A DNA stretch of 40,798 nt, taken from positions 1 to 40,798 of IMG/VR virus record IMGVR_UViG_2634166457_000005. One strand, written 5' to 3'. Position numbers: made by a program. The first letter of the stretch is position 1. Every line of letters starts with the position of its first letter. The stretch is from a virus. Lineage: Duplodnaviria > Heunggongvirae > Uroviricota > Caudoviricetes. This document shows positions 23,501-26,500 of this stretch, piece after piece.

Positions 23501-26500
23501 TCTGAGTCTTATATATCAGAACTCCTTCGCTGTCGCTGGGGGCTCCTGTGCTTATGTCGTTTCCCCGATTCGGTTTTGAACGATTACCGAATGTTGAAGA
23601 ATTATGCCAAAATATAGAAAGGATTTACTGCATGAATACCCAATATTTACAGTATGTTCGTGAGCAACTTATGGCAGCTACTGCTGACTTGAACGGAGCA
23701 ACGAAAGGCCAGCTCGAAGCCTGGCAGGAGCATGCACAATTTGATACTGGTACATACAAACGAAAGAAGCCGCGCATTCTGGATGTGGTAACTGGCAAGA
23801 TGATTACGCTGGATAATACGCCGACTTCCGGTAAGCAGTCGTACGCAAAAGGTTCATCCATTGCTTTGGTCAGCCCGGTTGAATTCTCAACCTCTTCATG
23901 GCGCCGCGCGGTTTTGTCTCTCGATGAACATCAGAAAGCATGGTTGCTTTGGTGTTACAGCGAAAGCGTTCGATGGGGGCATCAGGTCACCATAACGCAA
24001 TGGGCATGGAGCGAGTTTAAAGATTTGTTAAGTAACAGAAAAATTGCAGGTAAGACACTGGATCGCCTGAAGACGTTAATCTGGCTGGCTGCACAGGATG
24101 TGAAGAGCGAACTTGCAGGGAGTGAGGCCTATGAATACCAGACACTGGCATCATTGGTGGGAGTGACAACAAAAAACTGGTCCGAGACATTTACTGAACG
24201 CTGGGTTGCAATGAAGCACATTTTTCTACAGCTTGATAGTGATGCTTTATTGCTTGTGACGAAAACACGTTCAAAACAAAAGGCAGCATTTTTACAGCAA
24301 AATATTGCAAAACTGGATTAAAAGCCATATACTTCATGCAAATTTGGTATGTTGTAAAAAATGTATAAACCCGCTGCCGAGTGGTTTTTTTTTATGCCCT
24401 GAGTTGTACTTGTACGGTAAACATGCTGGCTGCTATGTAATAGAGTTTTTTTAGCCTGTAACCTCTTGACGGCATTGAATTGCTTTTGTTATGAGTTGTA
24501 AGCCAATGTTATCATCTTGTATTGGGGTGGTTATGAAGGATGGTGCGCTGCTCAGGAGTTCTTCACTTTTTATTGCCTACATGGGATGCCTTGGATGGGG
24601 GAGTGCTTATTTCTATGGATGGGGTACTTCTTTTTACTACGGCTTCCCATGGTGGATTGTAGGTGCAGGTGTTGATGATGTTGCCAGAAGTTTATTTTTT
24701 GCAGTTATCGTCATTGCTATATTTCTTATCGGTTGGGGTATTGGTGTTGTATTCTTTTTCGCAGTGAAAAGAAAACATTCTATGCAAGAGCTAAATGTAT
24801 TTCGCCTTTATTTTGCTGTGGAATTATTGTTTGTGCCGGCAATTATTGAGTTTTCTATATTGAGACAGAAGATTCAGGTACCTCTTTTGCTACTGTCAGC
24901 AGCGATTGCGCTGGCGGTTACAATTTCGATAAGATCTTATGGGCGATTTTTATCGGTATCATGCTTCTATGATAAGCCATTTATAAAAAAACATTTTTTT
25001 GAGATTGTGATGATTGCTTTTGTGGCATATTTTTGGCTTTTTTCATTTCTGACAGGATATTACAAACCACAGTTTAAGAAAGAATATGAAATGATTAATT
25101 ATAATGATGGTTGGTATTATGTTCTTGCTCGTTATGATAATTGTCTGGTTTTGTCTACTTCTTTCAATGCAGGTAGTAAAAGGTTTGTCATTTATCAATC
25201 AGCACAAGATAAGAATCTTCAGGTTGATATTGTAAGGACCAGAATTTAATTGGCTGCATAAATAATATTTTAAGTTGCAAGTTGGCTATTCGTAGGAATA
25301 GAACCTTAGGCATGCTGAATGCGTTTTCTGAACATTGTTTTATAAACTGTGTCTGCTTGCTGTTGTGATCCTGCTTTTAGTGATGGTGATGATGGATTTC
25401 ACCAGCAGGATAATGTTGGTACTGACTGATGGCGCTCTGGTCTGCGGCATTGTGGTATTGCTGTGGCCGATGATGAAAGAACAGAATGAATAATTCTTGA
25501 CTTTTTTGTTTACTGTTTATTAAAAAATCAACCGCATGGTGAATCCTCCTTGGAGGGGCTAAATGATCGAGTTTTAAGGGCACGTAGCGAGTTCTGTTTG
25601 ATCATTGCAGAACTTAGCGGGAGGCGCCATGCGTACATCACTAATGTTATTTCCTTCTATCATTTTCCTTGTGAGTTCTGGCTGCGCATGGCGCGGCCTT
25701 TTTTTTATGACCTGCCACTGGCAGATGGTCATCCTGTGATTTGATTCCGGTTCCGGCTTTTTAACTCTGTTCCTGTACACGGGAGAAATTCTATGTCGAT
25801 TAATCGTTATGATATTGGTTACAAGAAGTACCACGTATTGTGTTGAGATAGAAAGCCTGGTGCCAGAGGTAAATGCAGCAGCATAATAAAAAAGAGCCAG
25901 CGCAGAAGAGAACGGGTAAAAGAGTCTGCGCTGGCGTGGGGATATTCCCCGTGGAGAAATGATATGTAACACACATCGGGAACCTTTCTATATAAACATT
26001 ATCATTATTGTCAATCATAACAGTCAGGTATTATGACGTTTATGCATCAGGGCCATCAGGAATTAACTGGTGGCTTTTTATTGTTGTCAGCTTCCGGATA
26101 ACGGGAGACGGGGTATGTACCAGATGGAAAAAATCACAACAGGTGTGTCATACACCACGTCAGCGGTGGGGACGGGATACTGGTTACTGCAGCTGCTGGA
26201 CAAAGTCTCTCCGTCCCAGTGGGTGGCAATAGGTGTGCTGGGGAGTCTGCTGTTTGGCCTGCTGACGTATCTGACTAACCTGTATTTCAAAATCAGAGAG
26301 GACCGTCGTAAGGCGGCGCGGGGAAAGTAAAGCGATGAAGAAAAAATACGAACTGGTTGTTAAAGGGATAAATAATTACCCGGATAAGATTACTGTTACT
26401 GTGGCACTGGAAATTGGTGGGTATCCGTCACTGTTGTTGCCAGATGTGGCGATTAGTCTTGACCGTACTGAAGGTGCCACGCTGGAGTTTTACGAAGCTG

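Follow-up and report, generated by a model that had tools for sequence, protein, structure and literature searches.

A moron, in the sense said to have been given to the word by Juhala et al. in 2000, is an autonomous unit inserted between the genes of a phage operon. In phage lambda, the interval between the antiterminator gene Q and the holin gene S is known to hold only the late promoter pR', the 6S RNA and the terminator tR'. Other lambdoid prophages carry cargo in this slot, including the genes for the Stx and LT-II toxins, which follow a logic of Q-dependent read-through combined with autonomous promoters. The same slot was analysed here in IMG/VR virus record IMGVR_UViG_2634166457_000005, a lambdoid prophage of 40,798 nucleotides (the whole of which is called the window), where it lies between the Q stop codon and the holin gene (24322-26114) and holds a membrane-protein gene, a small DUF3927 gene and two small RNAs (sRNAs). 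Convergent pairs of Hfq-bound sRNAs have been described at the moron site downstream of pR', with Sp3 among the named prophages (Tree et al., 2014; PMC4104026). These pairs of enterohaemorrhagic Escherichia coli (EHEC) occupy the same place as the pair in the window, downstream of pR' and of moron coding sequences, and are likewise convergent, with intrinsic terminators as Hfq sites.

The DNA of phage 434 (OL657226.1, CPT_434_68 to CPT_434_71) matches window positions 24200-25817 at 99.1% identity. Its annotation shares the Q82-like Q, a terminator, a 'putative membrane protein', 'TciB' and an sRNA region with a terminator, the last annotated as a second 'putative membrane protein' (gp70, 62 amino acids) with the terminator inside it, and continues with a SASA esterase. 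The two differ in that 434 retains the 616-amino-acid esterase, which is deleted from the window, and carries a PasD2-like sRNA variant (a one-nucleotide deletion and hairpin changes) where the window carries PasD1. Prophage PP4 of enteropathogenic E. coli (EPEC) E2348/69 is collinear with the window from 24368 to the holin gene, in the same order of membrane protein, DUF3927 protein, PasD1 and holin, with 100% identity in PasD1 and in the Esr41-like region. They differ upstream: in PP4, Q and pR' are of lambda type and LpxR is missing, whereas the window, like EPEC prophage PP2, 434 and CP-933K, combines a Q82-type Q with an LpxR gene upstream of it. In all, identical or 99% identical DNA has already been annotated in phage 434, O157:H7 (CP-933K/Sp3), O55:H7 and EPEC E2348/69, the last of which holds two copies (PP2 and PP4).

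The slot is read here, with a probability of about 0.78, as a mosaic cargo cassette inside the late operon of a lambdoid prophage, made up of four self-contained expression units and one scar. Its contents are an inner-membrane protein of the PF27470/STM1630 family, a DUF3927/TciB-like protein, the sRNA PasD1, a convergent Esr41-like Hfq-bound sRNA and the remnant of a nanS-p esterase gene. An earlier note on this DNA had called the region a moron cluster, and rightly so, yet literature and databases already describe what it contains. The cluster is not novel: megablast detects the entire 1811 bp in O157:H7, O55:H7 and other E. coli (99.7-99.8% identity), and of 5426 complete E. coli genomes 655 contain at least 80% of the cassette. 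The features of the slot and its borders are as follows.

23632-24321, plus strand: Q82-type late antiterminator Q, left border (PF06323, E 9e-92; 'Q82-like' in the phage 434 annotation)
24305-24333, plus strand: predicted late promoter pR' of the Q module (TTGCAA-N17-TATACT; consensus scan)
24371-24393, plus strand: tR'-like intrinsic terminator, left end of the cassette (5-bp stem and T9 by scan; annotated terminator in 434)
24466-24494, plus strand: promoter-like element of the membrane-protein gene (TTGACG -35; TGTTAT/TTATGA -10 region; motif conservation)
24533-25249, plus strand: PF27470 'TfpB'/NCBI 'STM1630 family' inner-membrane protein, 238-239 amino acids (family labels; AlphaFold model; selection; phrog_1521, E 2e-154)
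25335-25493, plus strand: DUF3927/TciB-like membrane protein, 52 amino acids, two transmembrane (TM) helices (PF13064, E 3.4e-14; phrog_1470 'TciB-like'); translation putative
25497-25525, plus strand: promoter-like sequence TTGACT ... TATTAAAA upstream of PasD1 (near-invariant in the window, 434, Evi and PPyecE)
25534-25706, plus strand: Hfq-dependent sRNA PasD1, the EcOnc13 homolog, related to STnc100 (100% identity to EPEC PasD1)
25629-25739, plus strand: 'lipoprotein-like' open reading frame (ORF), rejected as a gene (within PasD1, extending 33 nt beyond its end)
25574-25972, minus strand: RefSeq hypothetical protein WP_012578864.1, 132 amino acids, probably spurious (spans PasD1 antisense, the deletion junction and the Esr41-like RNA)
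25793-25889, no strand assigned: deletion scar of a nanS-p-type SASA esterase gene (its initial 25 nt fused to its final ~70 nt)
25886-~25990, minus strand: Esr41-like sRNA, convergent with PasD1, positional homolog of PasA/PasC (sub-threshold Rfam match; fold; EPEC Hfq data)
26049-26085, plus strand: terminator-like hairpin directly upstream of the holin gene (scan; -16.2 kcal/mol, z -2.0)
26115-26330, plus strand: S21-type class II holin, right border (PF04971, E 1e-32)

The earlier note had placed some 1.8 kb of AT-rich DNA, absent from lambda, downstream of the late promoter and between a Q-like and a pinholin gene. These borders are confirmed by the Q82-type Q on the left and the S21-type holin on the right. 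The composition is that expected of a moron, with 39.4% G+C in the slot against 49.9% in the whole window, 36.1% in the membrane-protein ORF, and 36-39% in the cargo against 46-52% in Q and the lysis genes. No tRNA or toxin genes were found in the slot, and no match in an Rfam scan of it reached the gathering score. RefSeq annotates its genes as 'STM1630 family protein' or hypothetical, as 'DUF3927 family protein' and as a minus-strand hypothetical protein of 132 amino acids. Scanning of IMG/VR viral contigs gave 80 loci, all with a 100% identical membrane protein, so that they are informative on architecture and uninformative on divergence; a scan of genome contigs for related loci gave six. 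The order TfpB-DUF3927-PasD is invariant in the 80 loci, and the variable parts are the upstream Q type and the downstream esterase/Esr41-like part.

The left boundary is set by comparison of prophages with different Q genes. The pR'-like site overlaps the end of Q. The stretch 24302/24305-24367 is found only where Q is of the Q82 type, and in prophages with other Q types the junction to the cassette falls at 24368. Thus, 24302-24367 is part of the Q module, and the cassette opens with the terminator. This terminator is kept with the membrane-protein gene in PP4 and in one further related locus (L016). PP4 Q is annotated just as 'antitermination protein', and the sequence upstream of its junction presumably resembles lambda pR'. 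From its match to the consensus, 24305-24333 would act as pR' in the window. At the right end, phage 434 has an annotated terminator at the position equivalent to the 26049 hairpin. A TTGC-N6-TTGC pattern at 24297-24310 (minus strand) overlaps the predicted pR' -35 and is annotated in the 434 record as a CII site with a paQ -35; it is a bare pattern match.

The sRNA PasD1 is identified by sequence identity. All 173 nucleotides of 25534-25706 are identical by BLAST to NC_011601 1060260-1060432 of E2348/69, the coordinates of PasD1 in Table S6 of Pearl Mizrahi et al. (2021; PMC8550237). The proposed seed UGUGAG lies at 25670-25675, the reverse complement of the published Northern probe at 25667-25690, and the terminator at 25680-25698, followed by U8, with an 8-bp stem of which 7 pairs are G-C (-16.1 kcal/mol, z -2.8). 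In EPEC, the expression, expected size and Hfq-dependent stability of PasD1 were established by Northern blotting, RNA-seq and RIL-seq (sequencing of interacting RNAs after their ligation), and PasD was equated with EcOnc13 of EHEC (PMC8550237). The window sequence is PasD1, and its Hfq dependence is carried over from the identical EPEC sequence. The promoter-like sequence at 25497-25525 is kept while its flanks diverge and lies directly upstream of the 5' end estimated from RNA-seq; it probably acts as the PasD1 promoter. PasD1 and PasD2 of EPEC have been described as structural relatives of STnc100, with Q and LpxR as conserved neighbours and PasD1 adjoining the holin-lysozyme operon (Zhu, Shabalina and Storz, 2026; 10.64898/2026.05.13.724894). 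The layout of the window, with Q and LpxR nearby and holin-lysozyme next, agrees with this neighbourhood.

Compared with STnc100 (RF02076), PasD has the same 5' structured part, with a different seed and terminator. The UCCC/GGGA helix of PasD/STnc100 is kept in all seven aligned relatives; in the MAFFT alignment the window copy has its closing helix misplaced, and covariation pair counts are suggestive only. Phage Evi carries a hybrid sRNA (L004:3139-3375) with an STnc100-type 5' body (120 bits) and the very terminator hairpin that PasD1 has; its 5' and 3' parts appear to have been exchanged as modules. In PPyecE (L005:3167-3419), a genuine STnc100 (145 bits) immediately precedes the convergent anti-sRNA AgvB (96.5 bits). 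True STnc100 copies also lie upstream of the membrane-protein gene in L012 and L113, and a weak AgvB-like match is found between that gene and LpxR (L012:4825-4871).

The convergent partner of PasD1 and the esterase scar were both missed in the earlier note. The Rfam Esr41 alignment on the minus strand covers the 5' 'UUUCUCCA...GGGG...CCCC' part and the terminator, the terminator loop being longer in the window. The RNA folds into three hairpins with the terminator last (z -4.98), and a consensus scan gave a promoter-like site at 26027-25998 (minus strand). Hfq RIL-seq chimeras from identical EPEC DNA correspond to window 25887-25928, and an overlapping EPEC 'coding sequence', E2348C_1013, has a BaseMean of 2064, which drops 7.5-fold without hfq (log2 fold change -2.9). 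The Esr41-like RNA has its terminator and its position in common with PasA and PasC. Between the two sRNAs lies the scar. Homology to 434 stops at 25817, which is 25 nt inside the 1851-nt esterase gene (ATG at 25793), and 25818-25902 corresponds by alignment to its 3' end; thus, the esterase gene has been deleted and a scar left.

Across these sRNA genes runs the minus-strand ORF of WP_012578864.1. It gave no family match above threshold in Pfam, NCBIfam, PHROGs or PADLOC, its counterpart in E2348/69 PP2 is a frameshifted pseudogene, and it is probably not a gene. Gp70 of phage 434 (L003:5746-5934) is likewise a protein annotation across an sRNA gene. Both are probably annotation artefacts.

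Expression of the cassette in lysogens can be read from EPEC RNA-seq (Table S2, activating condition), where counts are given as BaseMean without length normalisation:

Q: 6 (PP4), 69 (PP2)
membrane protein: 147 (PP4), 226 (PP2)
DUF3927: 37
esterase: 102
holin: 3-5
pasD1 / pasD2: 8652 / 11017

In raw counts, the membrane-protein gene thus exceeds Q or holin about 25-fold, and the lysogen expression that the earlier note had foreseen for it is observed in EPEC. These counts fit autonomous expression of the cargo with silent lysis genes, the membrane-protein gene having a promoter of its own predicted here. The motif CTTGAC-N15-TTTGT(T/A)ATG is conserved upstream of 57-59%-identical paralogs on plasmids of enterotoxigenic E. 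coli (ETEC) and on a genomic island. A module boundary falls at 24462, 4 nt upstream of the promoter-like element, where homology to the ETEC plasmids sets in. The promoter TTGACG-N17-TTATGA had been proposed earlier at 24466-24494; its -35 and the TTTGT(T/A)ATG motif stand, and the -10 given for it is a poor one.

From this anatomy and the published EPEC and EHEC data, the following mechanism is inferred. In the lysogen, the tR'-like terminator (24371-24393) would halt transcripts from pR'. The membrane-protein gene would have its own sigma-70 promoter near 24466-24494, which probably serves the DUF3927 gene as well, and PasD1 and the Esr41-like RNA would each run from their own promoter to their own terminator. 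The sRNA terminators and, as a last barrier, the 26049 hairpin would shield the lysis genes from this transcription. Upon induction, Q-modified polymerase from pR' would pass every terminator, so that the cargo would be co-expressed with holin and endolysin.

Several points weigh against reading the slot as such a cassette. Promoter-like scan hits number 9 against 8.4 in shuffled sequence, the promoters and pR' resting on consensus matches, whereas the moron terminators are clear by scan and folding. TTATGA matches the -10 consensus poorly and the exact -10 is ambiguous, the tR'-like hairpin folds weakly (z -1.3), and the DUF3927 gene starts with TTG and has no obvious Shine-Dalgarno sequence. 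Neither sRNA reaches an Rfam gathering score. In a permissive scan, STnc100 aligns in full length with 25504-25709 at 37.7 bits (E ~1e-6), below the gathering score of 47, where true members in Evi, PPyecE, L012 and L113 score 60-145 bits; PasD1 is related to STnc100 and is not filed as STnc100. Esr41 (RF02676) aligns with 25886-25975 at 32.3 bits (E 3e-4) against a gathering score of 102, hence the name 'Esr41-like' only. Finally, deletion of STM1630 in Salmonella caused no defect in intramacrophage replication.

The membrane protein itself is a genuine family member. The PF27470 label, named 'TfpB', is attached to all 108 matches, including the 100%-identical cluster representative P0001, and the identical RefSeq protein WP_001299184.1 is named 'STM1630 family protein'. 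The assignment consists of the precomputed Pfam label and the RefSeq naming. The Pfam and NCBIfam copies that were scanned lacked the PF27470 model and gave nothing, and PHROGs gave 'unknown function' families only. All 23 aligned homologs share the start methionine at 24533, which is favoured over the longer annotated starts at 24491 and 24506; these are not supported by the alignment. The ratio of nonsynonymous to synonymous substitution rates (dN/dS) is 0.08-0.19 against homologs at 46-94% protein identity; this purifying selection shows that the ORF, as had been claimed, is a genuine gene and no chance ORF.

An AlphaFold (AF2) model built with remote homologs (predicted local distance difference test 77.6, predicted template-modelling score 0.71) has helices at residues 10-36, 47-78, 89-111, 116-136 and 149-181 and a five-strand C-terminal domain at 184-235. 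Lysine and arginine are enriched in the loops following helices 2 and 4. By the positive-inside rule, the protein would be N-in, C-out with five TM helices, and the beta domain of about 55 residues would be periplasmic. The earlier description of a polytopic protein with a soluble C-terminal part agrees with the model, for which no structural relatives were found. The family occurs in Enterobacterales and, by exhaustive profile search, also in Neisseria and Pasteurellaceae, always as 'hypothetical'; a second, word-indexed profile search gave no additional remote relatives. Moraxella TfpB, which would be expected from the Pfam name, was not found in the homolog searches.

One relative with published data is STM1630 of Salmonella, a full-length homolog of the same length (gapless alignment, 46% identity) with its own promoter. 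It is macrophage-induced in strain 4/74 and silenced in ST313 by single-nucleotide polymorphisms in the -10 box. It differs from the window gene in being chromosomal, beside sseJ and outside a prophage late operon, with neither DUF3927 nor PasD downstream and no phenotype found. The literature assigns it no function, the functional tests being two negative Salmonella knock-out screens. Homology of the window protein is to this family only, and not to any phage late protein of established function. The protein is most likely a lysogenic-conversion factor that acts on the cell envelope, rather than a lysis or virion protein. Support for such a host-directed role comes from the lone Salmonella homologs, macrophage-induced beside sseJ, and from one homolog in Haemophilus ducreyi among housekeeping genes.

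A rival reading makes the protein a superinfection-exclusion or anti-phage factor made by the prophage to block DNA entry at the inner membrane, as is done by HK97 gp15 and P22 SieA. The protein is a moron product with its own promoter and lysogen expression, is predicted to cross the inner membrane several times and to bear a periplasmic domain, and is widespread in E. coli prophages, all of which would suit this role. However, none of the five proteins scanned matched a PADLOC model at E up to 0.1, Salmonella, Citrobacter rodentium and H. ducreyi have homologs fixed in the chromosome outside phage loci, and the steady purifying selection is at odds with the rapid diversification expected of exclusion proteins. 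The role is considered unlikely.

The neighbours of the homologs invite another reading. In the window (21982-22053 and 22199-23158, minus strand), a gene for the lipid A 3'-O-deacylase LpxR (PF09982, E 7e-40) lies just upstream of the Q82-type Q on the opposite strand. It adjoins a fragment that carries the annotation of a lambda-type Q N-terminus, so that an older Q gene seems to have received the LpxR-YlcG-Q82 block by insertion. In EPEC, LpxR shows good expression (BaseMean 2936). LpxR directly adjoins membrane-protein homologs of 66-68% identity in two more orientations, convergent in L012-L014:4001-5919 (with PmrD also adjoining in L013) and divergent in L015:2863-4717, the divergent orientation being found in C. 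rodentium. At these loci the neighbouring LpxR is 70-75% identical, which suggests that the two genes have long travelled together; since many copies lack LpxR, the association is a lead and no finding. The Salmonella homolog adjoins sseJ, and those on ETEC plasmids adjoin eltAB (LT-I) and STb (L006:2987-5714). In a Cronobacter prophage the homolog sits between LT-IIA/B and a pertussis-like S1/S2S3 pair (L107:2655-7091), and in an Enterobacter cloacae prophage directly after stx1e A/B (L113:3540-5714). The Citrobacter freundii homolog follows tail-fibre genes. The statement that this slot carries stx in other phages is thereby borne out beside homologs of the protein, the window slot differing in that it holds no toxin genes.

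It may be asked whether the membrane protein is tied to such neighbours, as an inner-membrane partner or regulator of LpxR or as an accessory for periplasmic AB5 toxins. The three LpxR arrangements with matching divergence, the PmrD gene in one of them, and the homologs that flank stx1e, LT-I and LT-II with the pertussis-like toxin would be explained. Against this, many copies have neither neighbour, for example those in E2348/69 PP4, in the 20 IMG/VR loci with another Q type, in L016 and L109 and in H. ducreyi, and one shared insertion hot-spot predicts co-location without any functional link. LpxR is moreover an outer-membrane enzyme, and contact between the two is hypothetical. Such a tie is slightly less probable than an exclusion role. 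A stronger form, in which the PF27470 protein is an envelope factor that the co-carried virulence cargo (LpxR, Stx1e, LT-I, LT-II, the pertussis-like toxin and SseJ) needs, is doubtful to a slightly greater degree; it might, for example, control how LpxR deacylates lipid A, or how periplasmic AB5 toxins are released or assembled. If true, the recurrent neighbourhood would be functional, beyond a shared insertion hot-spot.

A phage late function is very improbable. The protein would then be, for example, a lysis-timing modulator or an antiholin-like factor, made mainly from pR' before lysis, and its gene does lie in the late operon on the same strand, 0.9 kb upstream of the holin gene, where Q read-through would raise its expression at induction. 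Set against this are its count in uninduced lysogens relative to Q and holin, the conservation of the promoter motif on plasmids and islands that have no lysis genes, the existence of non-phage homologs, and the normal lysis of lambda and of many other lambdoid phages that lack the gene.

A lysogenic-conversion role remains the most likely one for the membrane protein. The second protein-coding unit of the cassette is the DUF3927 gene. The earlier note had seen a possible single-TM peptide at 25383-25493; the gene is real, and that peptide is the C-terminal two thirds of a 52-residue ORF (25335-25493) with two hydrophobic helices and DFTSR between them. The ORF is a member of DUF3927 (53 bits against a gathering score of 25, residues 7-50 of 52), and its dN/dS is about 0.45-0.5 over 45 codons. 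It is real as a family member, its translation in the window being putative. Its likeness is to the tciA-tciB-tciC genes of P1 and to lambdoid TciA/TerB-TciB pairs, through phrog_1470 and DUF3927. In phages Evi and PPyecE the conserved gene follows a TciA/TerB-like gene and its start overlaps the tciA stop, whereas in the window the TerB-like partner is replaced by the PF27470 gene, which lies 85 nt upstream, with no coupling. The overlap expected of TciB is accordingly found in Evi and PPyecE and not in the window, where a recombination junction falls within the first three codons. The name 'Tci' itself reportedly came, in the P1 genome paper, from annotation by context and not from an assay.

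The second small ORF, the lipoprotein-like one at 25629-25739, did not hold up. It lies in PasD1, is cut to 14 amino acids by the one-nucleotide deletion in the 99%-identical DNA of phage 434/PasD2, and has no conserved frame, unrelated peptides following the equivalent ATG in Evi and PPyecE; conservation is thus lacking for this ORF and present for the DUF3927 ORF. Its 'SSGCAWRGLFF' stretch is the terminator hairpin with the T-run, the cysteine codon lying in the terminator stem, and the supposed lipobox (V-S-S-G-C) has serine at -3 where [LVI][ASTVI][GAS]C requires L, V or I. The hairpin substitutions in phage 434 (G.U to A-U and one loop base) keep the stem and yet would change the peptide (W to L and G to S). 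GGGAGG does lie six nt upstream of the ATG, but this Shine-Dalgarno-like sequence and the AUG pair with the 5' end in the predicted fold, within the conserved helix. In a ribosome profiling (RIBO-seq) study of EDL933 (PMC5331693), 'STnc100_1' at NC_002655 902843(+) has a ribosome-coverage value of 2.16, above the authors' threshold of 0.355 for a 'candidate for translation'; this is probably the same locus (CP-933K). If so, ribosomes or another protector contact the RNA. That the slot holds three protein-coding morons (the membrane protein, a single-TM peptide at 25383-25493 and a small lipoprotein at 25629-25739) is hardly credible, even though both small ORFs exist, given the above, the location of the 25383 start inside TM1 of the DUF3927 match and the experimentally validated Hfq-dependent sRNA at this locus.

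Two further observations concern other parts of the window. A 114-amino-acid DUF1327 gene (PF07041, E 5e-46) at 26335-26679 is inserted between the holin and endolysin genes, an insertion absent from the lysis cassettes of 434, CP-933K and PP4. The sole Rfam match of the window to reach its gathering score is the lambda cIII thermoregulator element (RF01804, 88.5 bits) at 13914-13972 (minus strand).

The outcome is a correction rather than a discovery, in that the apparent small-peptide stretch is a pair of Hfq-dependent regulatory RNAs. The error of annotating an sRNA as a protein is repeated in public annotation, in WP_012578864.1 and in gp70 of phage 434. About 12% of complete E. coli genomes have the membrane protein, O157:H7, O55:H7 and EPEC among them, and a defined phenotype for it would give these heavily studied pathogens a further lysogenic-conversion function.

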